From the NCBI GenBank assembly GCA_963838265.1, contig CAWIQN010000009.1:220487-284486 (forward strand): 64,000 bases of DNA, in the 5' to 3' direction. Below the pieces are notes generated by a model, which made no database searches, was not told the origin of the DNA, and saw nothing but the letters and a program-made list of their open reading frames with translations. Positions 30,870 to 57,710 of this stretch are shown piece after piece. Both the position numbers and the translations under genes were made by a program. The stretch is from an uncultured Acidobacteriota bacterium. GTDB taxonomy: Bacteria; Acidobacteriota; Terriglobia; Acidiferrales; UBA7541. The stretch's first letter is position 1; each line of letters begins with the position of its first letter.

Positions 30870-31469
30870 ATGCCGTCCATCAAAGATCACGAGTCGTCGC
30901 TGGTCAAGCAGTTCATTGCCAGCTTCGAGAAGCTAGACGAAATGCGCGCCAGCGAGATCCTCGATCCAGTCGCTTGGCAACTCACGGATGGCGAATGCGA
31001 CAAATACGGATACAAGAGATGGCGTCCGGCCAATTCGATGACCGATCGCGCGGAACTGGAAACCCTTTATGCAAAGCTTCCTGCCCGGTTTCCGCCGCTC
31101 TATGAACGACTGGTTCTTTCGTACCGATGGGCTGAAGTAGACTTGTAGCTCTTCAGTTTGCTCGCGAATCCTCCCGGACCGAATCTAACAGATCTATTGC
31201 ATGAGATGTCGAAGGACCAGTTTCTCTGGAACGCTCTTCTTGAGAAGGGATTCGTGCGATTTGGCAAAGGCGCCGATTTTGATTACAACCCAGTTTGTTT
31301 TGATCTTAGCGCGCGCCGTAAAAACGGAGATTTTCGCGTCGTCAAGATCGATCACGAAGAGATTTTATGCAACCGCAGGGTAAAGATTGTCGGAGAACTA
31401 GCGGCAAGCTTTGAAAAGCTGGTGATGCTCACGATTGAAGCGGGCGAGCGCAAAAATGCTAAGGACTAG
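30870..31469 (+). pseudogene. SMI1/KNR4 (SUKH)-like protein interrupted by an in-frame TAG at 31146-31148
   Basis: The two track ORFs are in the same frame (..AEVDL*LFSLLANPPG..). LPARFPPLY, YNPVCFD and ELAASF patterns fit SUKH-like proteins. Confidence 0.6.
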
Positions 31470-36552: not shown

Positions 36553-36854
36553 TAGAGTTTGAGCAGGTCCACGCGTTCCACGTTGAGCGATTGCCGGTTG
36601 CGCGCAATCAAGATAATGATGCCGAGCCCGACGGCGGCTTCAGCGGCAGCCACGATAATCACAAACAGCACGAAAATCTGGCCGTCCAGCTTTCCGGTTC
36701 GCTGGCTGAAGGCCACAAAAGCCAGATTCACCGCGTTCAGCATCAGTTCGATGGACATGAAAATGGTGATGATGTTGCGCTTGAAAATAAACGCCAGGAC
36801 ACCCAAGCCGAAGAGCACGGCGCTAAGCGCCACATAGTAAGTCGTGGGAACCAT
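36552..36854 (-). CDS. nuoK: NADH-quinone oxidoreductase subunit K
   Basis: MSIELMLNAVN, AAAEAAVGL. Confidence 0.95.
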   Translation of the reverse strand: MVPTTYYVALSAVLFGLGVLAFIFKRNIITIFMSIELMLNAVNLAFVAFSQRTGKLDGQIFVLFVIIVAAAEAAVGLGIIILIARNRQSLNVERVDLLKL

Positions 36855-36857
36855 TCT

Positions 36858-37373
36858 CTAATTCTCCCGATGCGCCAGAACGATGGCGCCCAGAATAGCG
36901 ATCAAGATCAGAATCGATGTCAGCTCAAAGGGATAGGCGAAATTCTTAAAAATCATGCTGGAAAGTTCGCGCGTGGAAGAAAGCGTGCCAGGAATTTTTC
37001 CGGTGTCGCCGGCCACCTGCACGAAAAGTCCCGCGGAGCGCGCCACCGTGGCGGCCACGAATCCGGTGAGCGCCAATGCCAGCAAAATTCCGGGGAAGCC
37101 CGCCATCTTGGAGATGCTGGTGTGCTCTTCGAGCCCGGCGTTCAGGAGCATGATCACAAAAACGAACAGCACCATGATCGCGCCGCCATAAACGATGATC
37201 TGCACCGCGGCCACAAATTCCGCGCCCATTAACAGGTATAGGCCCGCCAACGCCACCATCACGACGATTAAAGAAAGCGCGCTGTGAATGGGATGCTTCT
37301 GAAAAATCAGGCTCAGCGCGCCGATGACGGACAGCGCCGCAAGGATAAAAAATACCAGTAGTTGCGCGCTCAC
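36858..37373 (-). CDS. nuoJ: NADH-quinone oxidoreductase subunit J
   Basis: AEFVAAVQIIVYGGAIMVLFVFVIMLL, PFELTS. Confidence 0.95.
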   Translation of the reverse strand: MSAQLLVFFILAALSVIGALSLIFQKHPIHSALSLIVVMVALAGLYLLMGAEFVAAVQIIVYGGAIMVLFVFVIMLLNAGLEEHTSISKMAGFPGILLALALTGFVAATVARSAGLFVQVAGDTGKIPGTLSSTRELSSMIFKNFAYPFELTSILILIAILGAIVLAHREN

Positions 37374-38617
37374 GGGTTACTCCGCAGCAGAACAAAGAAA
37401 GCCGTCAGTACCACGTTGGCGATGGAGACGGGAAGCAAAAGCTTCCAGCCAAAGGCCATCAGTTGGTCGTAGCGGAAACGCGGCAGCGTTCCGCGCATCC
37501 ACACGTACACGAACAGGAATACGAGGATTTTGCCGAGCAACCAGAACGGTCCTTGAATAAAAACGTTTACGAATTGCAATTGCGGCAGCGCCAGCACTAA
37601 ACCGATTAGCGTTACCACCGTGCCGATGCCGGGGAGAATCAACCGGCCCCAAATTGTCTCGTAACGAATGCCATCCCAAATCACCCACAAGCCGGAGGGA
37701 ATCAGCAGCAGCGACGGCAGATAGTACGTGAAGGTCCAGGAGTGCGGAAAAGGAGACAGCCAGCCGCCAAAAAACAAAATCGAGCACAAGCATGAAACGG
37801 TGATCATGCTGGTGTATTCCGCGATGAAAAACATGGCGAACTTAAAGCTGGAATACTCAGTATGAAAACCGGCGACGAGTTCCGATTCCGCTTCCGCCAG
37901 ATCGAAGGGCACGCGATTGGTCTCCGCGATGGCTGCCACAAAAAAGCAGAAGAAGCCGAGTATCTGCGGAAACGGCCCGGAGAAAATGTTCCAGCCCAAA
38001 ATCCCCACGCCCCAGGCGGGATGCGATTGGGCGTTAATAATCTCGGTGAGATTAAAACTGTTGGCCATGAGCAGCACGCCGACGACCGACAGCGTCAGCG
38101 CCAGTTCGTAACTGATCATCTGCGCCGAACTGCGCAAGCTTCCCAGCAGCGGGTACTTGCTGTTGGAGGACCAGCCTGCCAGCGCCACGCCATACACGCC
38201 GAGCGCGGTAATCGCGAACAATACCAGCAAACCGATGCTGGGATTGGCGATGTACAAATACACCTGGTGGCCCAAAACCTTGATTGGATCCGGACCAAAC
38301 GGAATCACCGCAATGGAGGTCAGCGCCAGCCCCAGCGCCAGCAGCGGCGCCAGGAAATATACAAATTTATCCACGCCGGCCGGCGTCGGATCTTCCTTCA
38401 GCAAAAATTTCGCGCCATCGGCCAGTGGCTGCAGCAAACCATGCGGACCCACGCGATGCGGCCCCCAACGCGACTGCATGTGTGCCACCACCTTGCGCTC
38501 GAACCACGTCAAATACGCGTTGACGGTGAGCACAATGAACAACAGCAACGCGATTTTAATCAACGTGATGATGATTTCGGCGTGGGCCGATATGGAACTT
38601 AAAACGAAGTCGATCAC
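37370..38617 (-). CDS. nuoH: NADH-quinone oxidoreductase subunit H
   Basis: ERKV..RWGP, QPLADGAK, AETNRVPFDL, GFHTEYS, PRFRYDQL. Confidence 0.96.
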   Translation of the reverse strand: MIDFVLSSISAHAEIIITLIKIALLLFIVLTVNAYLTWFERKVVAHMQSRWGPHRVGPHGLLQPLADGAKFLLKEDPTPAGVDKFVYFLAPLLALGLALTSIAVIPFGPDPIKVLGHQVYLYIANPSIGLLVLFAITALGVYGVALAGWSSNSKYPLLGSLRSSAQMISYELALTLSVVGVLLMANSFNLTEIINAQSHPAWGVGILGWNIFSGPFPQILGFFCFFVAAIAETNRVPFDLAEAESELVAGFHTEYSSFKFAMFFIAEYTSMITVSCLCSILFFGGWLSPFPHSWTFTYYLPSLLLIPSGLWVIWDGIRYETIWGRLILPGIGTVVTLIGLVLALPQLQFVNVFIQGPFWLLGKILVFLFVYVWMRGTLPRFRYDQLMAFGWKLLLPVSIANVVLTAFFVLLRSNP

Positions 38618-40866
38618 GGCTTTGCTTCCGCCTCCGGCAAAGATTCCATCATGGTGCAGAAACGACCGAGTGTTCCGCTGGTGAATAAGGTGTCTTGCGC
38701 GGAGCGAATCAAGCCGGCGGGCACATCATACGCGCCGTGGCCATTGCGCGAAAATTGCACGCGCGAAGGCTCGGCGCCGCCGGTAAGCAGTCCCGCTGCT
38801 TGCACGTTGTAGCTGGGCACAGCCTTGCTAATCTCTTCAAATACCGCCGCCGGCGTTTTGTAGTGAAAGGCTTTGCCAAGTCCGAGTTTCTCGAGTTGGT
38901 GCGACAGAATGCGCAGCAAATCAAAATCGGTGCGCGGGCCCATGATTTCCGCGGCTTTGTGCAGCAGTTGAATTTCGCCGGAAGTGTTGGTAACCGTGCC
39001 ATCTTTTTCGTAGGCCGAAGCCGCGGGGAAAACAATGTCCGCCTGATTGGCCGTTTCCGTCAAAAACATTTCGTGCACGATCAGCAGGTCCAATTTGCCG
39101 CGGCCAAATCCCAACGTTCCGAAATGTGCCAGCGGGTTCGCGCCCATCACGTAGAGCGCTTTCAATTTTCCGGACTGCGCGGCTTCCACCATTTGTGGCG
39201 CGGTCATTCCCGCCTGCGAAGGAATCACGCCGCCCCACAACTTTTCAAAGGCTTCGCGAGCGCCGGCGTTATCCACATACGCGTAGCCCGGTAAGCGATC
39301 CGGCAGCACGCCCATGTCTGCCGCGCCGCGCGAATTGGCATAGTCGGCCAGCGCCATGTAGCGCACCTGCCCCGGCAGCTTCGAGCCGAACGCCGTGAGC
39401 AGCGCAATCGCCGCACCAGAAATTTCCGCGCCGAAGACGATGGCGACTTCTGGCTCCTGTTCAAGCGCAGCTTTTAGCGCGACGAGCCGTTCCACAAGTT
39501 CGTGGCCCAGCTGGCCTTCTTCGTGCGCCACCCAGCGCAACGCCGCGGCTTCCTGCCCCGGTGCTACCTTTACATATTGCGTGGCTTTGCGTTCCAACTT
39601 GATTTCCGCGGAGTTGATGACAAAAAGTTTACTGGCGAAGTGCCGGATGCCCGAGCGAATCTGCCAAGCCACCAGCGGATTCTGATTGGTGGGATCGTTG
39701 CCCACCAGCAGCACGGCCTTCGATTGATACAGCTGTTCCATCGTCAGCATGGCATCGCCCGCGCGGTCGCCCAGAGCGGTTACCAGGCCCGTGAAATCCG
39801 CGGTGCGATGATGATCGATGTTGTTGGTGCCGAACGTGGCGCGCGCCATGCGCTGAAACAAATAATGTTCTTCGTTGGAGGTGCGGTTCGACCCGATGAA
39901 GCCGAAGGCGTCTTTTTTGCCGGCGTCGGCGACCGCTTTGAGCTTTGCGGCGGCAGTTTGTGCGGCTTCTTCCCACGAAACGGGGTAGAGCTTGTCGCCC
40001 TTGCGTACCAAGGGCTGGCGCACGCGGTCGGGATGCCGCGTAAAATCAAAGCCAAAGCGCCCTTTGACGCACAGAAAATCCTTGTTGATCCCAGACATGT
40101 CGCGATTATTCGCCCGCATGATTTCGTGATTGCGCACGCTCAGCGTCGTTTTGCAGCCATTTGAACAGTGCGTGCAAATGGTCGAATGGTATTGCATTTC
40201 CCACGGCCGCGTCTTGTAGCGATACGTGCCGCTGGTCAGCGCTCCAACCGGGCAAATATCGATGCACATGCCGCACTCTTCGCATTCCAGATGATCTTCG
40301 CGATTGGGAATGATGATGCTGTGCGCGCCGCGCATGCCCACGCCAAGAGCCTTCACGTCCATGCCCTCGTCGCACACACGCACGCAGCGGAAACACAGAA
40401 TGCAGCGCGGGGCATCGTAGTACACCAGATCCGACCATTTTTCTTCTGGACGGTGAATTTTTTCTTCCACAAAGCGGCTGGTATCCGCGCCGTAGCGAAA
40501 GACCATGTCTTGCAATTCGCACTCGCCGCCTTTGTCACACACGGGGCAATCCAGCGGGTGATTGGTCAGCAAGAATTCCAGCATGTACTTGCGCGCGTTG
40601 CGCACTTGCTCGGAGTCCGTCTTGACCACCATGCCTTCGGTCGCGACCAGCGTGCACGCGGTCTGCAGCTTGGGCATTTTTTCCACTTCGATCAGGCACA
40701 TGCGGCATGCCGCCTGCAACGAAAGGCCCGGGTAATAGCAGAACGAAGGCACCTCGGTGCCGATGCGCCGCGTGGCCTCGATGACCAGCGTGCCGGCAGG
40801 GACTTGCGTGTCCGCGCCATTAATCTTCAGCGTTACCAGCTTCTGTTCCGTTTTCTGATCGGCCAT
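38614..40866 (-). CDS. nuoG: NADH-quinone oxidoreductase subunit G
   Basis: CY..ACRMCL..C, HPLDCPVCDKGGECELQ, CILCFRCVRVC, CEECGMCIDICPVGAL. Confidence 0.95.
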   Translation of the reverse strand: MADQKTEQKLVTLKINGADTQVPAGTLVIEATRRIGTEVPSFCYYPGLSLQAACRMCLIEVEKMPKLQTACTLVATEGMVVKTDSEQVRNARKYMLEFLLTNHPLDCPVCDKGGECELQDMVFRYGADTSRFVEEKIHRPEEKWSDLVYYDAPRCILCFRCVRVCDEGMDVKALGVGMRGAHSIIIPNREDHLECEECGMCIDICPVGALTSGTYRYKTRPWEMQYHSTICTHCSNGCKTTLSVRNHEIMRANNRDMSGINKDFLCVKGRFGFDFTRHPDRVRQPLVRKGDKLYPVSWEEAAQTAAAKLKAVADAGKKDAFGFIGSNRTSNEEHYLFQRMARATFGTNNIDHHRTADFTGLVTALGDRAGDAMLTMEQLYQSKAVLLVGNDPTNQNPLVAWQIRSGIRHFASKLFVINSAEIKLERKATQYVKVAPGQEAAALRWVAHEEGQLGHELVERLVALKAALEQEPEVAIVFGAEISGAAIALLTAFGSKLPGQVRYMALADYANSRGAADMGVLPDRLPGYAYVDNAGAREAFEKLWGGVIPSQAGMTAPQMVEAAQSGKLKALYVMGANPLAHFGTLGFGRGKLDLLIVHEMFLTETANQADIVFPAASAYEKDGTVTNTSGEIQLLHKAAEIMGPRTDFDLLRILSHQLEKLGLGKAFHYKTPAAVFEEISKAVPSYNVQAAGLLTGGAEPSRVQFSRNGHGAYDVPAGLIRSAQDTLFTSGTLGRFCTMMESLPEAEAKP

Positions 40867-40905
40867 AAAGTCGTTACCGCGAATTTCTCAGCGCATCTGC
40901 TTTTC

Positions 40906-40929
40906 GTAGGCGCGCGGCATGCCGTGCCC
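40906..40929 (+). repeat. GTAG-type REP between nuoF and nuoG
   Basis: GTAGGCGCGCGGCATGCCGTGCCC. Confidence 0.65.
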
Positions 40930-40952
40930 GGTCGTGCCGAGGAGCAGGTTGC

Positions 40953-42767
40953 TTATCTGGCTCCCAAAAGCGCATCTACATTTTTATAAGCGCAGCGGCC
41001 CTGCAAGTGATCCTCAAATTCATTGCGCCACTTTTCCACGATGCTGATCGTCGGCATCGCTGCCGCATCGCCCAGCGCACAAAAAGTTCTGCCCAGCATA
41101 TTCTTGGACAATTCCAGAACGTTAGTAATGTCCGCCGCTGTGCCGTACCCGGCGTGAAAGCGGTCCAGCATCTTCATCAGCCAGGACGTGCCCTCGCGGC
41201 AGGGAATGCACCAGCCGCAGGATTCGTGCGCGTAGAAATGCATTACGCGGCGCGCCATGTCCACCATGCAGGTGTCTTCGTCCATCACCACCATGCCGCC
41301 GGAGCCAAGCATCGAGCCAGCTTTGGCCAGCGAATCGAAATCCATCGGAATATCGATCTCGTCCGCGGTAAGAAACGGGCAAGAGCTGCCGCCGGGAATC
41401 ACCGCTTTCAATTTCTTTCCGCCGGGAATGCCGCCCACCACCTCGTAGATAAACTTCTTCATGTTCAGGCCGAGCGGAACTTCGTAAATTCCCGGCTTGA
41501 CCACATGACCGGAGACGCACAGCATGCGCGTGCCGCCATTCTTGGGCGTGCCCAGGGCCGCGTACGCGTCGCCGCCCATGCGAATAATCGCCGGCACGGA
41601 ACTCAGAGTCTCCGCGTTATTAATGACCGTTGGGCAACCATACAACCCCACCACGGCAGGGAAGGGCGGCTTGATGCGCGGGTTGCCGCGCTTGCCTTCC
41701 AGCGATTCCATCAGCGCCGATTCTTCGCCGCATTCGTACGCGCCGGCGCCGGTGTGAGTGATCAAATCAAAGTCAAATCCCGTGCCGAGAATATTTTTGC
41801 CTACGTAGCCGCGCTCATACGCTTCCGCCAACGCGATGTCCATAATGTCCAGCACGTAACGGTATTCGCCGCGAATATAAATGAAGCCCTCGTGCGCGCC
41901 AAACGCGCGGCCGGCAATCACCATGCCCTCGATCAGCTGGTGCGGATCGAGCTCCATCAATGGGCGATCCTTGCAGCTGCCGGGTTCCGACTCGTCCGCA
42001 TTGCAGATCAAATATTTCGGCTTGGGCGAATCTTTCGGCACGAACGACCACTTCATGCCCGTCGGAAAGCCCGCGCCGCCGCGTCCGCGCAGCCCCGATT
42101 TCTTGACGTCCTCGATGATCTGCTCGGGCGCCATCTCTTTCAGCGCCTTTTCGAGCGCCTGATAGCCTTCATTCTGAATATAGGTGTCGATCTTGCGCGA
42201 ATTGGGTATGCCCCAGCGCTTGCTGATCACCGGAATCTCAAGCGGACTGCGCGGATGCAGCGCCCCGGAGGTTACCGGCTCGTGATCCGGCTTGCGCCCG
42301 GCATCCAGCGTTTCGATGATGCGGTCAAATCGTAGCGGGGTGAGATTCTCGTAAAAATCGTAGTTCACCTGCATCGCGGGTGCGCCGGTGCAGGCGCCGA
42401 TACACTCCACTTCTTCCAGCGAGAATATGCCGTCTGAAGTAACTTCCTTGTTGCCGATGTTCAGCCGCTTTTTCGCGCGATCCAGCAGTTCATTTCCCCC
42501 GCGCAGCATGCACGCCACGTTGGTGCATACCTGCACGTGATTCTTGCCCCAGGGCTTGCGGTGCAGCATGGAGTAGTACGCCAGCGTTTCTTCCACCTGC
42601 ACTTCGTGCAAGTCCAGGCGCCTGGCAATTTCCGTCACCATTTCGTCGCTGATGACGCCATATTCATCTTGCGCGTACATCAGCATCGGAATCAGCGCGC
42701 TGCGCTTCACCGGATAGCTCGTCTGCAACTTTTCAAACTTCGCCGCAAGTTGTGGTGAAAGTTCCAT
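40953..42767 (-). CDS. nuoEF: Fused NADH-quinone oxidoreductase subunits E and F
   Basis: The N-terminal ~160 aa carry CTNVAC...CIGAC (NuoE). These are followed in frame by GRGGAGFPTG, NADESEPG, AGAYECGEE and SCGWCIPCREG...CALG (NuoF). Confidence 0.92.
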   Translation of the reverse strand: MELSPQLAAKFEKLQTSYPVKRSALIPMLMYAQDEYGVISDEMVTEIARRLDLHEVQVEETLAYYSMLHRKPWGKNHVQVCTNVACMLRGGNELLDRAKKRLNIGNKEVTSDGIFSLEEVECIGACTGAPAMQVNYDFYENLTPLRFDRIIETLDAGRKPDHEPVTSGALHPRSPLEIPVISKRWGIPNSRKIDTYIQNEGYQALEKALKEMAPEQIIEDVKKSGLRGRGGAGFPTGMKWSFVPKDSPKPKYLICNADESEPGSCKDRPLMELDPHQLIEGMVIAGRAFGAHEGFIYIRGEYRYVLDIMDIALAEAYERGYVGKNILGTGFDFDLITHTGAGAYECGEESALMESLEGKRGNPRIKPPFPAVVGLYGCPTVINNAETLSSVPAIIRMGGDAYAALGTPKNGGTRMLCVSGHVVKPGIYEVPLGLNMKKFIYEVVGGIPGGKKLKAVIPGGSSCPFLTADEIDIPMDFDSLAKAGSMLGSGGMVVMDEDTCMVDMARRVMHFYAHESCGWCIPCREGTSWLMKMLDRFHAGYGTAADITNVLELSKNMLGRTFCALGDAAAMPTISIVEKWRNEFEDHLQGRCAYKNVDALLGAR

Positions 42768-42822
42768 ATTCGTTTATGAAATTCCTGTAAATCTCAAACG
42801 CCGCCGAACCATTCCGTTGTTT

Positions 42823-44019
42823 CTATCGGTCTACTTCGCCGAGCACAATATCAATCGTTCCGATACACGCCACCACATCTGAAATCAACTGCCCTTCCGT
42901 CAACTTCGGAAGTGCCTGCAAATTGATGAACGACGGCGACCGGAAATGCACACGCAGCGGTTTCGCCGAGCCATCGCTGGCCACGAAGCATCCCAGCTCC
43001 CCGCGCGGCGATTCCACAGCCACAAAGGCTTCTCCCGGTGGCGGCGCAAATCCCTCGGTAAAAATTTTGAAGTGGTAGATAAGCGCTTCCATCTCCGTCT
43101 TCATCTTTTCGCGCGCTGGCGGCACGATGCCCGGCGCCTCGGAGCGAATCGGCCCTTGATCCGCAATCTTGTCGAAGGCCTGCCGCACGATCTTCAAACT
43201 CTCGCGCATCTCCGCCACGCGCACCATATACCGGCCGAAGCAATCCGAATCCGTCCGCGTCGGAACGTCAAACTCAAACTCTTCGTAGCTCGAATACGGA
43301 AACATCCTGCGATTGTCGTAGGCCAGCCCGGAAGCGCGCAGCGTCGGCCCGGTCATGCTCAGTGCAACCGCGTCTTCCGTCGATATATAACCAATCCCCT
43401 GCGTACGGCCCATCCAGATGCGATTTTTCGTCAACAGCGTCTCGTAGTCGTCCACGCGGCTGGGCATCATTTTCAAAAACTTGTCGATGGCTGCGCGCCA
43501 GCCTGCCGGAGGCTCCAGCGCCAACCCGCCGATGCGGAAATAGCTGGTCATCATGCGCTGTCCGGCGAACAGCTCAAAAATCTTCAGAATCTCTTCGCGT
43601 TCCCGGAAACAGTAAAGAAAAACGGACATCGCGCCCAAATCGATGGCGTGCGTCCCCAGCCACACCAGGTGCGACGAAATGCGCTGCAGCTCCACCAGCA
43701 TCACGCGGACATATTGCGCGCGCTTCGGAACTTCGAGGCCCAGCAATTTTTCCACCGCCAGGCAGTACACCAGGTTGTTGCCCAGCGGATTCAAATAATC
43801 CATCCGGTCCGTAAGCGTGATGGCTTGCGAATACGTTTTGTCTTCGCAGGATTTTTCAATGCCGGTGTGCAGATACCCCAGATCGGGCACCGCTTTCACC
43901 ACCGTTTCGCCGTCCAGCTCCAGCGCGATGCGCAACACCCCGTGCGTTGAGGGATGCTGCGGACCCATGTTCAAAACCATGGTCTTCGCTGTGCCGATCG
44001 GTGTTTCGACGGTGGTCAT
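42823..44019 (-). CDS. nuoD: NADH-quinone oxidoreductase subunit D
   Basis: NMGPQHPSTHGVLR, GYLHTG, DRMDY, ESPRGE, DIVLGEVDR. Start moved to 44019. Confidence 0.96.
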   Translation of the reverse strand: MTTVETPIGTAKTMVLNMGPQHPSTHGVLRIALELDGETVVKAVPDLGYLHTGIEKSCEDKTYSQAITLTDRMDYLNPLGNNLVYCLAVEKLLGLEVPKRAQYVRVMLVELQRISSHLVWLGTHAIDLGAMSVFLYCFREREEILKIFELFAGQRMMTSYFRIGGLALEPPAGWRAAIDKFLKMMPSRVDDYETLLTKNRIWMGRTQGIGYISTEDAVALSMTGPTLRASGLAYDNRRMFPYSSYEEFEFDVPTRTDSDCFGRYMVRVAEMRESLKIVRQAFDKIADQGPIRSEAPGIVPPAREKMKTEMEALIYHFKIFTEGFAPPPGEAFVAVESPRGELGCFVASDGSAKPLRVHFRSPSFINLQALPKLTEGQLISDVVACIGTIDIVLGEVDR

Positions 44020-44540
44020 ACGGTTGGCTTTCTGAACGCCGGAATATAGGTAGACGGCACGTCGCGGAATCCCTGCGTCGGGAAGTCGCGCCGCAGCGGA
44101 TGGCCTTCCCAATCGTCGGGCAGCAAAATGCGCCGCAAATCCGGATGCCCAGTAAACTGAATCCCAAACAGATCGAAAATTTCGCGTTCCAGCCAGCCCG
44201 CTCCCGGCCACACCGGGACCAGCGTGTCCACCACCGGATCGCTGCCGGAAAGTTTTGTTTTTAATCGCAGACGGTCGCGGCGGGGAATCGATACCAGGTG
44301 ATAGTTCACTTCGAAGCGCGGTTCCATCGGATAACGATCCACGCAGGTGGCGTCCGTGAGCAAATTGTATTGCAGCTCTTGGTCCTCGCGACACCGCGCG
44401 GCCGTTTCGCGCAGGAGTTCGCGCGGCACCACGATGGTGGTCTCGCCGCGAAATTCAATCACTTCCGCCACCGCGCGGCCATTCCAGGCACGCAGGTGCT
44501 CGACCACAAAATTAGCGTTCTGGCTGGTATTCTCGCTCAC
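44016..44540 (-). CDS. nuoC: NADH-quinone oxidoreductase subunit C
   Basis: RFEVNYHL, WLEREIFDLFG..GHPDLRRIL..GHPLRRDFP. Confidence 0.95.
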   Translation of the reverse strand: MSENTSQNANFVVEHLRAWNGRAVAEVIEFRGETTIVVPRELLRETAARCREDQELQYNLLTDATCVDRYPMEPRFEVNYHLVSIPRRDRLRLKTKLSGSDPVVDTLVPVWPGAGWLEREIFDLFGIQFTGHPDLRRILLPDDWEGHPLRRDFPTQGFRDVPSTYIPAFRKPTV

Positions 44541-44573
44541 GTCTTGAGTGCTTTTCCGAAACAGAGTAGGCGG

Positions 44574-44945
44574 CTATTTGTGCCAGTCCAGCGCGCCTTT
44601 TTTCCAGAGATACACGTAGCCAACCATCAGAATCGCGATATACAACATCATTTCCGCAAAGCCGAACCAGCGTAAAGAACGAAACACAAAAGCCCAGGGA
44701 TATAGAAAAATGGCCTCCACATCGAACAAAATGAAAACCATGGCCACCAGGTAGAACCGTACGGAAAAGGGTTGCCGCGCGTCGCCCGTCGGCACCATGC
44801 CGCATTCGTAGGCTTGTTGTTTGGCCTTACTGGGCCTGCGCCAGCCCACCAGCACGGACATCGCGCTTATCGCGCTCGCAAGAAACACCGCGATGAGCAG
44901 GTGTAAAAGAAGCGGAGTATAGACTTGTATGCCTGAATCGCTCAT
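44574..44945 (-). CDS. nuoA: NADH-quinone oxidoreductase subunit A
   Basis: YECG, FYLVAMVFILFDVEAIFLYPWA, YLWKKGALDW. Confidence 0.95.
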   Translation of the reverse strand: MSDSGIQVYTPLLLHLLIAVFLASAISAMSVLVGWRRPSKAKQQAYECGMVPTGDARQPFSVRFYLVAMVFILFDVEAIFLYPWAFVFRSLRWFGFAEMMLYIAILMVGYVYLWKKGALDWHK

Positions 44946-48367: not shown

Positions 48368-49291
48368 TTAGACTTCCCCCGCGCGAACGCCAAGCCGCAC
48401 CCTGGCTCCCAATTCCATCCCCGCCGAAGCCGCGCGCACTTCAACTGAACTTCCCGCCAAACGGCAAGTCACCGTCCCCGCAGCCTCTTGCACCGCCACC
48501 ACGATCGCCTCGAAGTCCGTCCCGGCCACAGTAAACTCTTCCGCGGCAATCCTGCCGTGCTCAAGAGTAATAACGCGTTCCCCGAGCGCCCGCACCTCTT
48601 CATAGTCGTGCGTCACGTAAAGAATAGGAATGCCATGCGACTGATTCCAGGCGCGCAAATCTTCGATGATGTGCGCCTTCGTGCGCGCGTCCAACGATGA
48701 CAAGGGCTCGTCCAAAAGCAAAACACACGGTTCGGTGACCAACGCCCGCGCCAGCGCCACGCGTTGCTGCTCGCCACCAGATACCTCTCGCGGCAAGCGG
48801 TCGGCAAGGTGCGCGATGCGAAACGATTCCATGATAGTGGCCGCCCGCCGCAGCCGCTCCGCCTTATCCAGCTTGCTCAGGCCATAAACCACATTTTCTT
48901 GCACGCTCAGATGCGGAAAAAGCGCCAAATTCTGAAATACAAAAGCCACGTTGCGATGACGCGGCTCGAGATTGATTCGGCGCTCCGAATCAAACACCAC
49001 GCGTTCGCCAATCGTGATGCAGCCGCGCTCCAACTCCGAAAGTCCCGCGACGCAGCGCAACAACGTCGTCTTCCCGGCGCCAGAGTGGCCACGCAGCACC
49101 GTGAACCCCGGCGGCACCTGGAATCTCGACTCTAGCGTGAAGCAAGTCTTTCCCGCGATGGCGTGCCGTTTGCACACGTCGATATGTAATACGCTGGGCG
49201 CGTTGTTGTCCGCGCCGGCCGCCACGTGGTCATTAGCCGCGGGTACGGCTACGTCTGGAAACCAGCTGCCAAGAACGCTTAGTTCTCCCAT
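48368..49291 (-). CDS. Oxyanion (ModC/WtpC-like) ABC transporter ATPase; C-terminal TOBE region appears short
   Basis: GHSGAGKT, VSGGEQQR, LLLDEP, VTHD. Confidence 0.85.
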   Translation of the reverse strand: MGELSVLGSWFPDVAVPAANDHVAAGADNNAPSVLHIDVCKRHAIAGKTCFTLESRFQVPPGFTVLRGHSGAGKTTLLRCVAGLSELERGCITIGERVVFDSERRINLEPRHRNVAFVFQNLALFPHLSVQENVVYGLSKLDKAERLRRAATIMESFRIAHLADRLPREVSGGEQQRVALARALVTEPCVLLLDEPLSSLDARTKAHIIEDLRAWNQSHGIPILYVTHDYEEVRALGERVITLEHGRIAAEEFTVAGTDFEAIVVAVQEAAGTVTCRLAGSSVEVRAASAGMELGARVRLGVRAGEV

Positions 49292-50106
49292 TTTGTCACC
49301 TTCCCAAGTGGCGCCAGAACATCCGCAACGCCCGTCAAACGGCTAAGATTCATGGAGACGCTTACGGCAATCACCGCCAAAATCACTAAACAGAACGCAA
49401 TTGGCAGCGCCCCCGCCAGTCCATCCGACTCGAATTTCACCCACAGGTACACCGGCAGCGTGTGCGGGTTGTACGCCATGATCAGCGTCGCGCCAAATTC
49501 CCCGAGCGCGCGAATCCACGCCAATGTGATTCCCGCGGCGATGCCCGGCCACGCTAGCGGAAGCGATATCCGCCAAAAAATGCGCCACGCCGAATCGCCC
49601 AAAGTCCCGGCCGCCGATTCCAGTTCGGAATCTACGCTCGAGAATCCCGCCAGCGCCGAAACAATCACAAACGGCGACGCCACAAAAATCTGCACCAGAA
49701 TGATTCCCAATAAACTATTCGTGAGTGGAATATTCCGCGCGTCAAACGGTTGGCCGATCGCTCCGTACGGGCCGAACAGCCGCAACAAAAGTATTCCACC
49801 CGCCAGATCGGGCACCACCATCGGCAGAAACACCAGCCCAATCCACAGTCTCTTAAACGGCAATTTGGCGCGCGCCAGCAGATAACCCAGCGGCACGCCC
49901 ATCAGCGACATCGCCAACACCGCAATCCCAGAAGACACCACGGAAACTTTCAACGCACTCAATGCCTCTGGCTGCCGCAACGACGCCAGCACCTCCGCCG
50001 GGTTGCTCTTCAGCAGCAAATTGGCGATGGGCAAAACCAAATTCAGCAGCAGTACGCCGCCCAGCAACGCAAAAATCACGAATGTGCGATTCAGTAGACG
50101 GTTCAT
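49279..50106 (-). CDS. Oxyanion (ModB/WtpB-like) ABC transporter permease
   Basis: LPMVVP..GILLL, ESAAGTLG EAA loop, RALGEFGAT. Confidence 0.88.
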   Translation of the reverse strand: MNRLLNRTFVIFALLGGVLLLNLVLPIANLLLKSNPAEVLASLRQPEALSALKVSVVSSGIAVLAMSLMGVPLGYLLARAKLPFKRLWIGLVFLPMVVPDLAGGILLLRLFGPYGAIGQPFDARNIPLTNSLLGIILVQIFVASPFVIVSALAGFSSVDSELESAAGTLGDSAWRIFWRISLPLAWPGIAAGITLAWIRALGEFGATLIMAYNPHTLPVYLWVKFESDGLAGALPIAFCLVILAVIAVSVSMNLSRLTGVADVLAPLGKVTKWEN

Positions 50107-51107
50107 GGCGGAAACGCTCCCGTACTAAAGCCGCGCAGCTCTTGCGGAACTTCGTTGGGATCCCCGCCGGTTTGGTGCGCCACGTTGGTAAATCCAAACT
50201 GCGTCAAGAGTTTGTCGGAAGACAAAACAAATTTGACGAACGCCAGCGCCGCCTCGCGATGCCGCACCGTCTCTGGGATGGTGATGGTGAAAAGAATCGG
50301 CGCGCCAACCACGTGCTCGCCAGACTTCGTATCGTACGATTCCTGCGCGTAGCTGGCCGCGAACCGCGGATCGCCCAGATTAATTTCCGGCGGCAGCGTC
50401 ACAAACGGCAGCTTGTGCGCCACCGCTTCGTGCTTATAAAAAATCCCCGCATCAAACTCGCCGGATTCCAGCCGCGCCAGCAGCACAATTTCTGGAAACA
50501 CTTGCGCTGGATTCAGCGCCGCGCCCAGCAATCGCGGAATCTCCGGCCGATGGTAATACCGCCCCGCCAGCCCAAACATAAATAGCGTCCGGTAACCCTT
50601 CGGATCGATACTCGGGTCGCCGCGTCCAAATCGCACCCTCGGAGTCTCCAGCAGTTCGTACCACGCCATTTTCCCCGCGCGCACATCCTCAAACGTCGCC
50701 GCAAATTTACTCTGCGGGTCGTACCCCAGCACCAGTTGCGAAGCCGCCACGGTCATGAACCATTTCACAAGGTTGCCGTTTTCCTGCCCCATCAGCACCT
50801 GCCGATTGACGCCCGGATCCGCGCTGATATACACGTCCGGCGCCCGCATGTGATCGCGAATCATCCGCGCGCCTCCCAAGGATCCTTGCGCCTCGCCTTG
50901 ATAGGAAATTCCCGTAGCGCGAATGAACTCTGGCCCCACGCCGTTCTCCATCACCGCGGCGAGTGAACCCGCGTACAAAACCGAAACACCCTGCGCTTCG
51001 GAACTTCCCGCTGTGGGCAGCAGCAGAATGGCAGTGCATGCTGCCAACACCGCACCCACCATGCGTTTCATCAGGCCTTGAACTTCACCACGCGATTTCG
51101 TTTTCAT
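50103..51107 (-). CDS. WtpA/ModA-type oxyanion-binding periplasmic protein
   Basis: YAGSL, AQGS, DVYISAD, DPSIDPKGYR, PE..L..RLESGEFD, LPPEINLG; signal peptide ending AQG. Confidence 0.82.
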   Translation of the reverse strand: MKTKSRGEVQGLMKRMVGAVLAACTAILLLPTAGSSEAQGVSVLYAGSLAAVMENGVGPEFIRATGISYQGEAQGSLGGARMIRDHMRAPDVYISADPGVNRQVLMGQENGNLVKWFMTVAASQLVLGYDPQSKFAATFEDVRAGKMAWYELLETPRVRFGRGDPSIDPKGYRTLFMFGLAGRYYHRPEIPRLLGAALNPAQVFPEIVLLARLESGEFDAGIFYKHEAVAHKLPFVTLPPEINLGDPRFAASYAQESYDTKSGEHVVGAPILFTITIPETVRHREAALAFVKFVLSSDKLLTQFGFTNVAHQTGGDPNEVPQELRGFSTGAFPP

Positions 51108-51200
51108 GAAATATTCGCAATTGCAAAAAATTCGGAAACCGCCACAACGGAGGCCTTCATCACGTGCTGGAAAGCCTCCGTCGCGCGGTCCATCATATTG

Positions 51201-53039
51201 TCATGACTTGGTGATGGTAATCGGCGTCCCGTCAAACTTCGTGAACTGGAAAAACACGTCCTGCTCCGGATAGGTGTTGATCACCGTTTGCAGCAGGATG
51301 ATCGCGACCTGTTCGCCAAGCAGCAGCGATTGCGTGTAGTCACTGCGCCAGTGCATGCCCGCGGTATCCCGCGCGATGCCCACGTTCGAAGCCAGTTTGT
51401 TGAGTTCCGTCCCCACGGTAATCTGCCCTACGTCCGCGCCGGCGTAGGGAACTAGAGTCGTCCCATCCGGCGAATACATCGGCGTGACCCCGTTCGCAAG
51501 AAACGTCTCCGAATCATTGAAAAACGCCTTCAGCACCGTCACCGAAGCGCCGCCTACCGTCGCGTGCCCCGATCCGTACGCCGGATGCGTCGGAGATCCC
51601 TCCGGATACGCCATCGGCAACCAGTAGCCTCCGAACTTCGAAAACGTCTGCGGCAACGCTTGCGAGTTCAGCACATCCGAGTGCACCGGATACGTCGCCG
51701 CTCCGGTAAAAATATTTTGCAGCCATCCGCCATACTCTTCCGGACGCAGCGTGCGATGCACGAAATACTTCTGGTACCACACCGCGCGCAGCGCCCGCAG
51801 CGAGGCATCCGCCATCAGCGCCGTAATGTGCGGCCCGCCCCACTGCGCAAAATTCGTTTCTGCCGGAGTCTTCGTCGCGCTATAGGGCGACCCGGGGTTG
51901 AGCGGGAAGTTCTGCGCCAGCATCGCTACCGCGCCGAAATAATATGCTTGGTACAGCTCGTCGATGTGCACCAGCCCGCCAAAGCTACGGCCGTCGTGCA
52001 CCCACACTGGATTCGGCTCCAGCTGGTTATTCCCAAAGTCAAAAAAGATGCTTCTGCTCAGCGCCGGTACGGTCACCTGGCCGTTTTGCACCGCCAGAAA
52101 TGCCGACTGCGTGGTCATGTAATCCACGTTCGGGGCATACGTGAAATACTGCTGCGCGGCCACGCCGCTCGAATTGTCCACCGCAAAATTTCCCAATCCA
52201 AAGGTCGTCGGCATCATCAGCAGCTGCGACACATAAGGCCCCACCGTGTCTCCCACGGTGATTCCGCGGAATAGCGTCTGGGCCGTAACTTGCCCACCCT
52301 GTTTCGGCCCTTTGAAATTGGATAGCGCATTTAAATCCGCGATCGCTGCCGAAGATAACGGCTCCGCCCCGTACTGGCTAAACGGCACATCTCTACACAG
52401 TGCGTGCCAGTACAGCTCCACAGCTTCTCCCGCGCGCTCTGCGCTCGAAAACGTCGGAGCCGGCGGAATCGTCACCGCCGCGCTATCCACCCCATCCAAA
52501 TTCACCACCAAGCCTGCCTGCGGACTCGCATACGGCGCCGTTCCGCCCAGCGTAATAGCCTCAAAGTCCGCTTGTTTGCCCGTCGTGCAGGCCTTCAGAA
52601 ATGTCTTGTACGCTGCCGGATCCACTTGCCCCAACCCATCGTGTGGCAAATTCTTGGTGAAATTTCCGATGTAGTTGTCGTTGGCAAACGCAGATTCGTC
52701 CGTGTTCGGGACCTGCGCCGGCAGCGGCCTTGCCAACTCCTTCAACGCCGCCTTTTCTCGGATCGCGAATACAAACGCTTGCCGCGCTGCGCCTCCCACA
52801 GGAAAGGTCGCCGTCGGCGTAGCCGGGTTAACCGCAGCTTGCGCCGCCGCCGCGTTCCCGCCCATCAGCGGTTCCAGCGGAATCGCCGCCGCCGCTGTGG
52901 CCAATGCCGCCAAGCCGCCGGCATGTCCCAAAAACGCACGCCGACTCGGCCCGCGCGACCCCACTTTTGCATTCGGATTTACGAGGTTATTGCTGTCGCC
53001 TTTGTATTCCGTCGGGACGCTCTTCTTCTCTTCGCTCAT
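51201..53039 (-). CDS. Vanadium-dependent haloperoxidase (bromoperoxidase-like) with Tat signal
   Basis: WYQK....HRTLRPE (K, R), PTHPAYGSGH (S, G, H), RDTAGMHWRSD (R, H), GNFTKNLPHD, ELNKLASN; SRRAFL Tat motif. Start set at 53039 behind AAGGAG. Confidence 0.88.
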   Translation of the reverse strand: MSEEKKSVPTEYKGDSNNLVNPNAKVGSRGPSRRAFLGHAGGLAALATAAAAIPLEPLMGGNAAAAQAAVNPATPTATFPVGGAARQAFVFAIREKAALKELARPLPAQVPNTDESAFANDNYIGNFTKNLPHDGLGQVDPAAYKTFLKACTTGKQADFEAITLGGTAPYASPQAGLVVNLDGVDSAAVTIPPAPTFSSAERAGEAVELYWHALCRDVPFSQYGAEPLSSAAIADLNALSNFKGPKQGGQVTAQTLFRGITVGDTVGPYVSQLLMMPTTFGLGNFAVDNSSGVAAQQYFTYAPNVDYMTTQSAFLAVQNGQVTVPALSRSIFFDFGNNQLEPNPVWVHDGRSFGGLVHIDELYQAYYFGAVAMLAQNFPLNPGSPYSATKTPAETNFAQWGGPHITALMADASLRALRAVWYQKYFVHRTLRPEEYGGWLQNIFTGAATYPVHSDVLNSQALPQTFSKFGGYWLPMAYPEGSPTHPAYGSGHATVGGASVTVLKAFFNDSETFLANGVTPMYSPDGTTLVPYAGADVGQITVGTELNKLASNVGIARDTAGMHWRSDYTQSLLLGEQVAIILLQTVINTYPEQDVFFQFTKFDGTPITITKS

Positions 53040-53489
53040 GTCTTCTCTCCTTTTTGCATGGTCGCCCTTGCGAGCAACCTTGCAAGCAACCCTTACAAGC
53101 AAATGGGTACCCTGTGACTGGAGCGATTCGGGGAGCTACTCTCTCGGAATCCAAAGTCGCAAGCGGGGAGGGGGCGACTCTGGGTAGCGCTGGAACGCCA
53201 ACCTGTTCCCGAGAGTTCGAGTCTTCGCCAGTTGGCGCGCAGACTACTCCGAGCGCCGCGCATTGTCTACTGTTTATAAGGACGATTTTGGTTCAGGTAC
53301 CGCGGACAGGGTGCCCAAAGCGTAACCACAAGATAATCAACGAGATTGCTTCACGACTACGTCCAGGTATCGCTGCCTATCCATCGCGCGGTGATAACAA
53401 ACGTGCTGGCGCCATAAAGCCAACAATCGCCAGAAACCGCAACCCTTCAGCGGAGGCGCCACTTTTCACTCTCCAGGCACACCAGTATT

Positions 53490-53558: not shown

Positions 53559-54119
53559 ATGAACGATCAACATAGCCAAGTCGGCCAACTAACTCCCGTA
53601 GCGCAAAAATTCGTTTTGCATTGGGGCGAAATGGGCACCCGCTGGGGCCTCAACCGCACCGTCGCCCAACTCCACGCCCTGCTGTTCATCTCCCCGCGCC
53701 CGCTTCCCGCTGACGAAATTTCCACCACGCTAGCCGTCGCCCGCTCCAACGTCTCCACCAGCCTCCGCGAACTCCAGGGTTGGCGCATCGTCCGCGTCGT
53801 CCACGTCCTCGGCGATCGCCGCGACCACTTCGAAGCCATCAAGGACGTCGTCGAAATCTTCCGCATCGTCTCCGAAGAGCGCAAACGCCGCGAAATTGAC
53901 CCCACCCTCCGCGTCCTCGCCGAGTGCGTCGAAGAATCAAAGGGCGCGGGCGACGCCTACAGCCACGAGCGCCTCGTCAGCATGCTCGAATTCCTCACCG
54001 CCATGACCGGCATGTTCGAAGAAATCATGCGCATGCCCAGCCCCGCCCTGAAAGGCGTGGTCAAACTCCGCGGCAAAGTAATCACCCTGCTAGGCACCGA
54101 AAAAAAGAAAACGGGTTAG
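53559..54119 (+). CDS. GbsR/MarR family transcriptional regulator
   Basis: [39 protein letters not shown]. Confidence 0.85.
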
Positions 54120-55656: not shown

Positions 55657-55850
55657 CCCTCGCCCACGAACCGACCTGAATCGTCCACCCTTCCCATCTC
55701 TTCTCCACGCTCTCCGTCTCTCTGCGCTCTCTCCGTTAGTCTTTTTTCTCCAATCCCGCACGATCCACTCACCAATGAAAATAGAAAAGTATCGCATTAC
55801 GATATATAATGTCTTTAGGCAGCAAGGTCAACGGAGACCACCGCAACGAT

Positions 55851-57710
55851 ATGAGCACCACCGCCGAAAACACCACCACCGCCAACGCCGCAAAATCCCC
55901 CAGCCCCCCGCCGGGCGCAGCGTGGGAGACCCTCGGCGACTTCACCGCCACCACGCGTCTCCTACCCATCTCCGCCCTGGCCATCGCCATCGGCGTAGTC
56001 GCCGCCTTCGTAGCCCTGGCGCTCTTGCGCCTCATTGGACTCTTCACCAACATCTTCTACTACGGTCGCTGGAGCACCGCCCTGGTCTCTCCAGCAGGCA
56101 ATCACTTGGGAATTTTCAGCATGCTGGTCCCCATCGGCGGCGCGCTGATCATCGGCCTGATGGCCCGTTACGGTTCCGAACGCATACGCGGCCACGGCAT
56201 CCCCGAAGCCATCGAAGCCATTCTGATCAACGGCAGCCGCGTCGAACCCAAAGTCGCCTTCCTCAAACCAATCTCTTCCGCAATTTCCATTGGCTCGGGC
56301 GGCCCCTTCGGCGCGGAAGGCCCCATCATCATGACCGGCGGAGCCATCGGCTCCATGATCGCCCAACTTTTCCATCTCACCAGCGCCGAGCGTAAGACGC
56401 TCCTCGTCGCCGGCGCCGCCGCGGGCATGTCCGCTACTTTCGCCGCGCCTCTGGCCTCCGTGCTCCTCGCCGTCGAATTGTTACTCTTTGAATGGAAGCC
56501 CCGCAGCCTCGTTCCCGTCGCGCTAGCCAGCGCCACCGCGGCCATCTTGCGCCGCTATCTTCTCGGCTTTGGCCCGCTTTTCCCGGTGCCCGAACACCCG
56601 CTGTATATCGGCGTTTACGGCTTGCTGGCGTGCGTCCTCGTAGGCGTGCTCGGTGGCGCCTTGTCCGCTCTTCTGACCATTTCTGTGTACGCCGCCGAAG
56701 ATGCTTTCCATCGCTTGCCCATTCACTGGATGTGGTGGCCCATGATCGGCGGCTTGGTAATTGGCTTGGGTGGCCTGATTTTTCCGCAGGCCCTCGGAGT
56801 GGGTTACGACACCATCGGCGCACTGCTTCAGGGCAATGCTACCACCCACATCATCTTGGGCGTCTTGTTCGTAAAACTACTTATCTGGGCCGTCTCGCTC
56901 GGCTCCGGCACTTCCGGTGGCGTGCTCGCTCCGCTCTTAATGATGGGCGGCGCGCTCGGTGGACTAGAAGCCATGTTCCTCCCTCACGAAGGCGCTGGAT
57001 TCTGGCCGCTCATCAGCATGGCCGCCGTCCTCGCCGGCACCATGCGCGCCCCGCTCACCAGCATTATTTTTGCTTTTGAATTAACCCACGACGGAAATGT
57101 TTTCTTGCCGCTGCTCATCGCGGGCGCAGTCGCACACGCCTTCACGGTTCTCACCATGAAGCGCTCCATCCTCACGGAAAAGGTCGCGCGCCGCGGCTAT
57201 CACCTGAGCAGGGAATACGCCGTTGACCCGCTGGAGATTCTTCAGGTCCGCGAGGTGATGCGCACCAATGTGCTCGTTCTCTCCGCAGGCATGACGCTGG
57301 CGGAGTTGCAACAATCCCTCCGCGCCGATCGCCGCGAGAATCAGCGTTTGCTTCCGGTAGTAAATGCCGAAGGGCGTTTCGTCGGTGTGCTCACCCGCGA
57401 TGACCTGCGCAAACGAATCGCCCAAGAAGGCGACGCCGCCATGCACCGCACCCTTGCAGAACTAATCCGGCCAGACACCGTCTCGACCTCTCCCGAAGAA
57501 CCACTCAGAGTTGTCGTTTATCGCATGGCCGAAATGGGTTTCACGCGCATGCCGGTAGTCGAACGCAACACCGGAAAATTTGCCGGCCTCGTATCGCTCC
57601 AGGATCTACTAAAAGCCCGCGAACGCAACCTCCAAGACGAGCGCCGCCGCGACCGCATCCTAACCCTCCGCTTCCTCTCCCCAACACTCAAGCCCCCCAC
57701 CAAACCGTAG
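55851..57710 (+). CDS. ClC chloride channel/transporter family protein with tandem CBS domains
   Basis: GHGIPE, GGPFGAEGP, AAGMSATF.AP, GTSGGVLAP, TEKVARRG, two CBS domains. Confidence 0.9.
   Translation: MSTTAENTTTANAAKSPSPPPGAAWETLGDFTATTRLLPISALAIAIGVVAAFVALALLRLIGLFTNIFYYGRWSTALVSPAGNHLGIFSMLVPIGGALIIGLMARYGSERIRGHGIPEAIEAILINGSRVEPKVAFLKPISSAISIGSGGPFGAEGPIIMTGGAIGSMIAQLFHLTSAERKTLLVAGAAAGMSATFAAPLASVLLAVELLLFEWKPRSLVPVALASATAAILRRYLLGFGPLFPVPEHPLYIGVYGLLACVLVGVLGGALSALLTISVYAAEDAFHRLPIHWMWWPMIGGLVIGLGGLIFPQALGVGYDTIGALLQGNATTHIILGVLFVKLLIWAVSLGSGTSGGVLAPLLMMGGALGGLEAMFLPHEGAGFWPLISMAAVLAGTMRAPLTSIIFAFELTHDGNVFLPLLIAGAVAHAFTVLTMKRSILTEKVARRGYHLSREYAVDPLEILQVREVMRTNVLVLSAGMTLAELQQSLRADRRENQRLLPVVNAEGRFVGVLTRDDLRKRIAQEGDAAMHRTLAELIRPDTVSTSPEEPLRVVVYRMAEMGFTRMPVVERNTGKFAGLVSLQDLLKARERNLQDERRRDRILTLRFLSPTLKPPTKP

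Follow-up and report, generated by a model that had tools for sequence, protein, structure and literature searches.

Why should the gene of a haloperoxidase lie directly beside the genes of an oxyanion importer? This question is raised by a stretch of 64,000 nt from an uncultured soil bacterium of the Acidobacteriota (contig CAWIQN010000009.1, assembly GCA_963838265.1), which is called the window below and within which all positions are given. Four co-oriented open reading frames (ORFs) were read on its minus strand at positions 48368-53039. The first encodes a homologue of the vanadium haloperoxidases (VHPO, bromoperoxidase type, 612 aa, 51201-53039). The other three encode an ATP-binding cassette (ABC) importer, i.e., a predicted periplasmic substrate-binding protein (SBP, 334 aa, 50103-51107), a permease (275 aa, 49279-50106), and an ATPase (307 aa, 48368-49291). 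The gap between the VHPO and the SBP gene is 93 bp, and the SBP and permease genes overlap by 4 bp and the permease and ATPase genes by 13 bp. These coordinates are all as stated in an original prediction for this locus, which had proposed that the importer is dedicated to supplying the VHPO with vanadate. The analysis revealed that the coupling of VHPOs with importers is real and recurrent, and vanadate supply is our preferred, still tentative, explanation of it.

Linkage of haloperoxidase and importer genes

The linkage was analyzed starting from the enzyme, using 80 metagenomic loci with VHPO homologues (41-59% identity) and seven further homologues (51-61%) that were looked up singly. Most VHPO homologues have no conserved neighbour. 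However, every VHPO that lies adjacent to a transporter belongs to one of two clades, namely clade B, which includes the window and has a bootstrap support of 100%, and clade A, with a support of 95%. A union of both was supported by a bootstrap of 48% only, and they were kept as two clades. Among the VHPO-seeded loci with enough flanking sequence, an importer was found within about 4 kb of the VHPO in 13 of the 14 loci of clades A and B, versus none of the 39 loci of other clades (Fisher p = 1.7e-11). The true exception is L062, the sole clade-B VHPO without an importer, which is surrounded by RND efflux genes and an alpha/beta hydrolase gene.

The importers belong to three unrelated families. 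A WtpABC-like ABC importer was found in the window and in the loci L001-L004, L023, L028, L038, L061, and L141-L147. Transporters of the major facilitator superfamily (MFS, anion-symporter type) were found in L148 and L149, and PHO4/PiT transporters in L150, L071, L087, and L098. The MFS or PHO4 gene is always co-directional with and downstream of the VHPO gene. The distance is about 100 bp, except for L098, the only one of the six loci with about 290 bp. The gene orders of the ABC-linked loci vary, including VHPO-SBP-permease-ATPase, SBP...VHPO-permease-ATPase, permease-ATPase-VHPO, a divergent arrangement, and two VHPOs around one transporter. In L143 and L145, no family matches were obtained for the small ORFs that separate the VHPO from the transporter. 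The original prediction had named a linkage unique to this genome as an argument against itself, but the adjacency recurs in many soil Acidobacteriota loci. Because the linkage outlasts both rearrangement and the replacement of the partner by unrelated families, these gene neighbourhoods are strong evidence for a functional coupling.

The same question was also approached from the transporter. The alignment of 22 SBP homologues, which are 61-79% identical to the SBP of the window, was used for a pattern scan over one genome per species, and 60 loci were retrieved. They are distributed over Acidobacteriota, Gammaproteobacteria (including USC-gamma Chromatiales), Xanthobacteraceae, Kofleriaceae, Acidimicrobiia, Aeromicrobium, Mycobacterium, and Vulcanimicrobiota. 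The triad of SBP, permease, and ATPase is intact in 50 of them. A VHPO gene is present within 10 kb in seven of the 60 loci, i.e., in the four closest relatives and in one locus each of Terriglobales, Sulfotelmatobacter, and Bryobacteraceae.

The neighbourhoods contained several additional features. In L141 (8001-15311) a single SBP-permease-ATPase-phosphatase operon lies between two VHPO paralogues of 621 and 601 aa, of which one is co-directional with it and the other convergent. A gene for a glyoxal-oxidase/GlxA-like radical copper oxidase adjoins the VHPO gene in two transporter-linked loci (L150:5933-7810 and L120:125-2044). Enzymes of the glyoxal oxidase family oxidise their substrates with release of H2O2, and such neighbours would fit a true peroxidase role of the VHPO. 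Around the SBP clade, a gene of the acyl-CoA dehydrogenase fold lies directly upstream in 19 of the 60 loci, often together with an AroD/AroE fusion, an FMN reductase, and a PhyH dioxygenase. This is the commonest context of the clade and occurs in four phyla (L005-L011, L013-L015, L018, L020, L021, L024, L026, L027, L034, L036, L051, L054, and L152-L155). It is sometimes joined by a DegT aminotransferase, a methyltransferase, and a shikimate kinase, and could serve nutrient scavenging or the synthesis of a small molecule. In the USC-gamma-type loci (L007-L009, L020, L024, and L027) the ATPase gene is followed by genes for a cytochrome-c-fused Peripla_BP_6 protein, SCO1/SenC, and a YVTN beta-propeller.

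Properties of the enzyme, the importer, and the fused phosphatase domain

Comparison of the VHPO with the PDB using phmmer yielded the bromoperoxidases of Corallina (1qhb, E 4.7e-74) and Acaryochloris (5lpc, E 3e-72), and the matches covered residues of about 90-608. Alignment to the Corallina motifs confirmed that all vanadate-binding motifs are present, as had been claimed before. The set comprises the vanadate-binding residues K424 and R432, which together with W421 lie in WYQKYFVHRTLRP (51744-51779), S490-G491-H492 (51564-51572), and the vanadate-binding R557 and the metal-ligand H563 (RDTAGMH, 51351-51371), which align with RNMAGVH of the Corallina enzyme and are invariant in the VHPO alignment (A2). 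W421 is conserved among the homologues; it and H485, which is also present, are the positions that we take to line the halide pocket. Three features distinguish the transporter-linked enzymes. The linked VHPOs retain the complete vanadate site, and S490 is part of it in 22 of 22, whereas E, A, Q, or S occupies this position in the unlinked homologues. E361 (51957-51959) is invariant in the linked VHPOs and replaced by a hydrophobic residue in the unlinked ones, and a short insertion at residues 292-295 is specific for the linked clades.

The compartment in which the enzyme folds is important for any supply model. The translation of the window's VHPO begins with a predicted signal region for twin-arginine translocation (Tat; residues 1-68, 52836-53039), which contains SRRAFL at residues 32-37, an alanine-rich hydrophobic region, and AQA at residues 66-68. 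R33, R34, and F36 are conserved to at least 90% in A2, the same motif is found in the clade-B homologues, and the N-terminus has a weak Pfam match to the Rieske TAT signal. The Tat-type export of the original prediction was thus borne out by the motif, the hydrophobic region, and the AxA site, and by the conservation of the motif. The start codon is probably correctly assigned, since AGGAG precedes the ATG at 53039 and a metagenomic homologue with 96% identity (P0121) opens with the same MSEEKK; a longer version starting with TTG at 53102 is possible but unlikely. Twin-arginine motifs are present in all clade-B VHPOs, and both the ABC-linked and the MFS-linked enzymes are of the Tat type. The PHO4-linked VHPOs of clade A (L150, L071, and L087) start with MPxLPVPPAP, have a stop codon just upstream, and lack a signal peptide, and they are predicted to be cytoplasmic. 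In these loci the importer would serve a cytoplasmic enzyme, because no signal peptide is present. Judged from the N-termini, the linked VHPOs would in every case fold in the compartment into which the adjacent importer delivers its substrate.

The SBP belongs to the archaeal WtpA/ModA class and represents an uncharacterised bacterial clade. Its matches were the Pfam family SBP_bac_11 (PF13531) and otherwise only WtpA models, and a phmmer search of the PDB yielded only archaeal ModA/WtpA structures (3cij/2onk, E 1e-31). A Foldseek search gave archaeal ModA/WtpA proteins at all top ten ranks and bacterial ModA proteins from rank 11 onwards, with 14-19% identity; the AlphaFold model used had a pLDDT of 71.8 and a C-lobe of low confidence around D168 and E206, and no pocket geometry was drawn from it. 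D168 (in DPKGYR, 50604-50606) and E206 (50490-50492) correspond in the alignment to chain residues 125 and 190 of Archaeoglobus fulgidus ModA in 3cij, the spacing of which is 65, as for Asp153 and Glu218 of that protein. The original prediction of a WtpA-type DPxGYR aspartate and a later glutamate (50490-50606) therefore holds. Asp153 and Glu218 have been reported to give an octahedral coordination of molybdenum or tungsten. D168 and E206 are invariant in 64 members of the SBP clade, and the candidate pocket residues S48, S76, D168, K170, Y172, E206, Y224, H226, and E227 are identical in VHPO-linked and unlinked SBPs.

The permease (Pfam BPD_transp_1) is a member of the WtpB/ModB/CysT family, and the ATPase, with a Walker A motif at residue 68, is ModC/WtpC-like. 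The equivalog cut-off was not reached for any Wtp or Mod model of NCBIfam; the scores were 147 versus 355 bits for WtpA, 198 versus 340 bits for WtpB, and 189 versus 440 bits for WtpC. The permease also matched TIGR01581 with 197 bits, and the ATPase matched ModC with 228 versus 285 bits, restricted to positions 11-215 of the 353 positions of the model. The genes are thus members of the sulfate/molybdate ABC group according to Pfam and NCBIfam. With respect to bacterial ModABC systems, no ModA model matched the SBP at E < 0.01, and no TOBE domain was found by Pfam in the ATPase.

Most relatives share an additional domain. The ATPase has a length of about 550 aa and ends with a low-molecular-weight (LMW) phosphatase domain (PF01451) in 40 of the 60 transporter loci and likewise in the majority of the VHPO-linked ones. 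The same domain forms the end of the MFS protein of L148 and of the PHO4 proteins of L150, L071, L087, and L098. The carriers of the fusion are thus L141-L148, L150, L071, L087, L098, and 40 of the loci L001-L060 (e.g., L143:11739-13406). The ABC-, MFS-, and PHO4-fused versions are about 60% identical to one another and have VFVCxGNTSRSP (the CX5R P-loop), FCMTEEQR, and DLEDPSG in common; the P-loop is degenerate in L023 and L147. The nearest characterised type are the YwlE-type phosphatases (E 5e-15), arsenate reductases are marginal, and the Cys82/Cys89 pair of ArsC is absent. A homologue search with the domain retrieved mostly short fragments and frameshifted long-read contigs. The fused domain may sense or receive the oxyanion. 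The ATPase of the window has a short C-terminal tail instead; its system has lost the domain.

The gap between the VHPO and the SBP gene contains a further element. After the VHPO stop codon the sequence folds into a long GC-rich hairpin (51136-51191) of -40 kcal/mol (z -4.83, and none of 200 shuffled sequences was as stable). It is followed by the U-run GAAUUUUUUG (51125-51130), about 25 nt ahead of the SBP start. In 13 related loci a hairpin is located at this position as well, with a sequence that is not related. A consensus terminator scan did not detect a terminator in the gap, and a single weak promoter-like site overlaps the 3' end of the VHPO gene. The hairpin is likely to be a terminator or attenuator. 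Because it separates the VHPO gene from the transporter genes, the two would probably be expressed at different levels. The sequencing runs that contain the locus are soil DNA metagenomes only, and no RNA run was among them.

The substrate of the importers and its possible role

An importer beside a VHPO could either deliver something to the cytoplasm or take up a product of the enzyme, and a substrate that is shared by all systems narrows the choice. It must suit five sites, i.e., the two-carboxylate pocket of the WtpA type, the PiT transporter, the anion-symporter MFS transporter, the phosphatase P-loop, and the active site of the VHPO. Vanadate fits all five, and it is favoured because a phosphate-like oxyanion that is able to take extra oxygen ligands suits each of them. 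The Asp/Glu pair of the SBP, in particular, would be suited to a metal oxyanion with an expandable coordination shell. Vanadate is a classic tight inhibitor of cysteine-based phosphatases. In yeast, vanadate enters the cells via phosphate transporters (PMC6219546). According to the proposed mechanism, the importer would bring vanadate into the cytoplasm, where the apo-VHPO would fold and bind it. The holo-enzyme would then leave the cell via the Tat pathway, while the enzyme of the PHO4-linked relatives would remain in the cytoplasm. In most relatives the fused YwlE-like domain with its intact CX5R P-loop would bind the incoming oxyanion, as a feedback sensor or as an acceptor. We regard this role of the importer, vanadate supply for cytoplasmic loading followed by Tat export, as the best single explanation, and our confidence in it stays somewhat below even.

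Several observations weigh against it. Molybdate or tungstate is the ligand of every characterised relative of the SBP (AFE_1498 also binds chromate), and vanadate was never tested in these proteins. Phosphate and thiols in the cytoplasm would compete with vanadate or reduce it. The window's ATPase lacks the phosphatase domain, and so do the ATPases of its four closest relatives. Co-transcription of the VHPO and the transporter genes is doubtful, because a terminator-like hairpin fills the gap. The serine signature at position 490 is suggestive only and not diagnostic, because the validated bromoperoxidase of Acaryochloris marina has an alanine there. Other secreted bacterial VHPOs are mostly exported via Sec (PMC11312541), and they must acquire vanadate outside the cell because Sec is used. 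In addition, 71 unlinked VHPO homologues, mostly with Tat motifs, do without an adjacent importer. On the transporter side, 53 of the 60 loci of the SBP clade (60-78% identity) lack a VHPO gene within a distance of 10 kb, and no position of the alignment discriminates linked from unlinked SBPs. A monophyly of the VHPO-linked SBPs, which had been hinted at by a first neighbour-joining tree, had a bootstrap support of 22% only and is not relied on. Based on the last three results, the transporter type is not VHPO-specific. The original prediction is supported in part, by the recurrence of the coupling, and a "dedicated" system is not supported. The importer of the window is more aptly described as a VHPO-coupled member of a broader clade of oxyanion importers.

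The alternative that survives best is an ordinary molybdate/tungstate importer of the WtpABC-like type that feeds enzymes with molybdenum cofactor (Moco), with a VHPO adjacency that was inherited in one acidobacterial lineage and has no meaning for supply. These two oxyanions are the ligands of the solved and characterised proteins that are nearest to the SBP, its Asp/Glu pair is the ligand set of WtpA, and the permease and the ATPase have their best scores against WtpB and ModC. It would also agree with the wide distribution of the SBP clade without VHPO and with identical pocket residues. Furthermore, a MoeA-like ORF, called by eye from its N-terminal sequence, is located in the window at 24482-25726 on the plus strand, about 24 kb from the cluster, which agrees with the original statement that Moco genes are unlinked and more than 20 kb away. 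If this call by eye is right, the organism is a Moco user and probably needs a molybdate importer somewhere. However, this explanation accounts neither for MFS or PiT/PHO4 transporters at the same position beside sister VHPOs nor for the clade-restricted linkage that survives rearrangements. In addition, no Moco riboswitch reached the gathering threshold, neither in the window nor in seven related loci, genes for Moco or Mo enzymes do not recur around the SBP clade, and every NCBIfam cut-off for Wtp and Mod proteins was missed. Taken together, an ordinary molybdate/tungstate importer is unlikely, though it has to be taken seriously.

Somewhat less probable still is a different oxyanion (e.g., arsenate, antimonate, chromate, or one of the sulfur or phosphorus species), or a role in detoxification or signalling that is marked by the LMW-phosphatase fusion, so that the link to the VHPO would not be cofactor supply. 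The main context of the ABC clade consists of flavin-dependent oxygenase-type genes (acyl-CoA-dehydrogenase/SfnB-like, FMN reductase, luciferase-like, and PhyH), which resembles clusters for nutrient scavenging or small molecules. Fusions of Acr3 with ArsC exist in arsenic resistance, and chromate is bound by AFE_1498. Yet the LMW-phosphatase domain has no counterpart of the two ArsC cysteines and scores far better against the YwlE type than against ArsC, the acidic pocket residues disfavour a fully ionised sulfate, and no resistance gene recurs near the clade.

Phosphate scavenging appears improbable. In that case the VHPO-like protein would be an exported phosphatase of the PAP2 type, the importer would take up the released phosphate, and the LMW phosphatase would be regulatory or trim organophosphates. 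VHPOs and PAP2 proteins have active-site motifs in common, which is a known relationship, one of the partner families is PHO4/PiT, the fused domain has a phosphatase fold and is catalytically intact by sequence, and the L147 cluster includes a PhoR/PhoB-like two-component pair. The matches of this pair are, however, generic and far below their cut-offs, and the PAP2 score of the VHPO is 25.1 bits, below the gathering cut-off of 27.2 bits. Moreover, the VHPO is a full-length homologue of validated bromoperoxidases with W421 and H485 retained, and the SBP is of the WtpA and not of the PstS class. The PHO4-linked VHPOs have no signal peptide and would thus not release phosphate outside the cell, two loci have glyoxal-oxidase-like neighbours as a possible source of H2O2, and a cytoplasmic phosphatase next to a phosphate importer would be illogical. 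Chance adjacency, with which the missing conservation of the genes beyond the four (MarR, ClC, and others) would agree, is effectively refuted by the recurrence across Terriglobia orders in several architectures (p = 1.7e-11).

The order of preference is thus vanadate, a molybdate/tungstate importer, a different oxyanion or role, and phosphate scavenging. With vanadate as the substrate, the VHPOs of clades A and B, the interchangeable importers, and the fused phosphatase domain might even form an unrecognised pathway for vanadium acquisition and cofactor loading, in which the P-loop would be the cytoplasmic receptor of vanadate, either sensing it for feedback inhibition or passing it on to the apo-enzyme ahead of Tat export. 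This extension is speculative, and we consider it unlikely in its entirety.

Surrounding genes and comparison with known systems

The genes around the cluster were also inspected. A MarR/GbsR-CudC-like regulator gene (53559-54119, plus strand) is divergent from the VHPO gene with a spacer of 520 bp; it is not kept beside the VHPOs of relatives. A gene 2.7 kb upstream of the VHPO gene (55809-57710, plus strand) encodes a chloride channel of the ClC type, which has two CBS domains. It was considered as a halide link to the enzyme and rejected, as no ClC homologue was found in any related locus. Because none of the neighbours, i.e., MarR, DCC, epimerase, ClC, histidine kinase, and RibA, is conserved in the related loci, they are not part of the system. 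A run of large ORFs at 31466-44945 on the minus strand resembles, by eye from the translations, an NADH dehydrogenase (nuo-type) operon.

Acidobacteriota of soils have VHPOs in abundance, and these enzymes are believed to drive the natural formation of organohalogens. If the proposed vanadate supply is true, the coupling would offer the first genetic handle on VHPO maturation and a reason why these enzymes use the Tat pathway. It would also provide candidate vanadate transporters in three families and a role for the uncharacterised fusion of transporter and phosphatase. Even with molybdate or tungstate as the substrate, the bacterial clade of WtpA-like systems with their fused phosphatase domain would be a type not described before, and it is widespread, with members in Acidobacteriota, Gammaproteobacteria, Myxococcota, and Actinomycetota. 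The molecular basis of vanadium uptake was said in a 2026 review to remain "poorly understood" (PMC13102585). Literature searches did not retrieve a paper on a VHPO-linked transporter, on Tat-dependent vanadate loading, or on fusions of transporters with LMW phosphatases of this type, and they agreed with the original statement that a described VHPO-dedicated vanadate importer was not known. In the literature found, the coupling of VHPO and importer is undescribed; in kind, it is a cofactor-metal importer encoded beside its client enzyme.

Several known systems resemble parts of the locus. The bromoperoxidases of Corallina (1qhb) and Acaryochloris (5lpc) are homologous to the VHPO of the window over the full length and have the vanadate-binding residues in common with it. 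In contrast to it, they lack a Tat signal, no linked importer has been reported for them, and E361 and the insertion of 3-4 residues are specific to the transporter-linked clades. The archaeal WtpABC and A. fulgidus ModABC systems (2onk, 3cij, and 3cg1) share the fold class of the SBP, the Asp/Glu pair, and the families of the permease and the ATPase. However, the identity is only 26-29%, the clade of the window is bacterial and from soil, K170, H226, and E227 are additional invariant residues near the candidate pocket, and the ATPase of most members bears the LMW-phosphatase domain. A bacterial WtpA-like protein, AFE_1498 of Acidithiobacillus ferrooxidans, was shown to have molybdate, tungstate, and chromate as ligands in a study that did not include vanadate (PMC11350598); its Asp and Glu are 39 residues apart, versus 38 in the SBP of the window. 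It was not recovered by the pattern scan and thus probably lies outside the tight SBP clade of the window.

The fused relatives are reminiscent of the Acr3-ArsC proteins, which are known from arsenic resistance of actinobacteria. In both cases a membrane transporter is joined to a cytoplasmic domain of the LMW protein tyrosine phosphatase fold that handles a phosphate-like oxyanion. The Acr3-ArsC proteins are exporters tied to arsenate reduction, whereas the carriers described here are importers with a YwlE-like domain, which the ATPase of the window does not have. The closest parallel in logic is VupABC of Anabaena variabilis, in the literature found the only defined bacterial vanadate ABC importer, which serves the V-nitrogenase. 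Like the system proposed here, it is an SBP-dependent ABC importer tied to genes of a vanadium enzyme, and the same logic of cofactor-metal supply would apply. VupA is TupA-like, whereas the SBP of the window is not of the TupA type as judged by its model matches, a comparison that did not include a VupA sequence. VupABC is mentioned only together with vnf genes in the literature found and has a nitrogenase as its client, whereas the client in the window would be a haloperoxidase.

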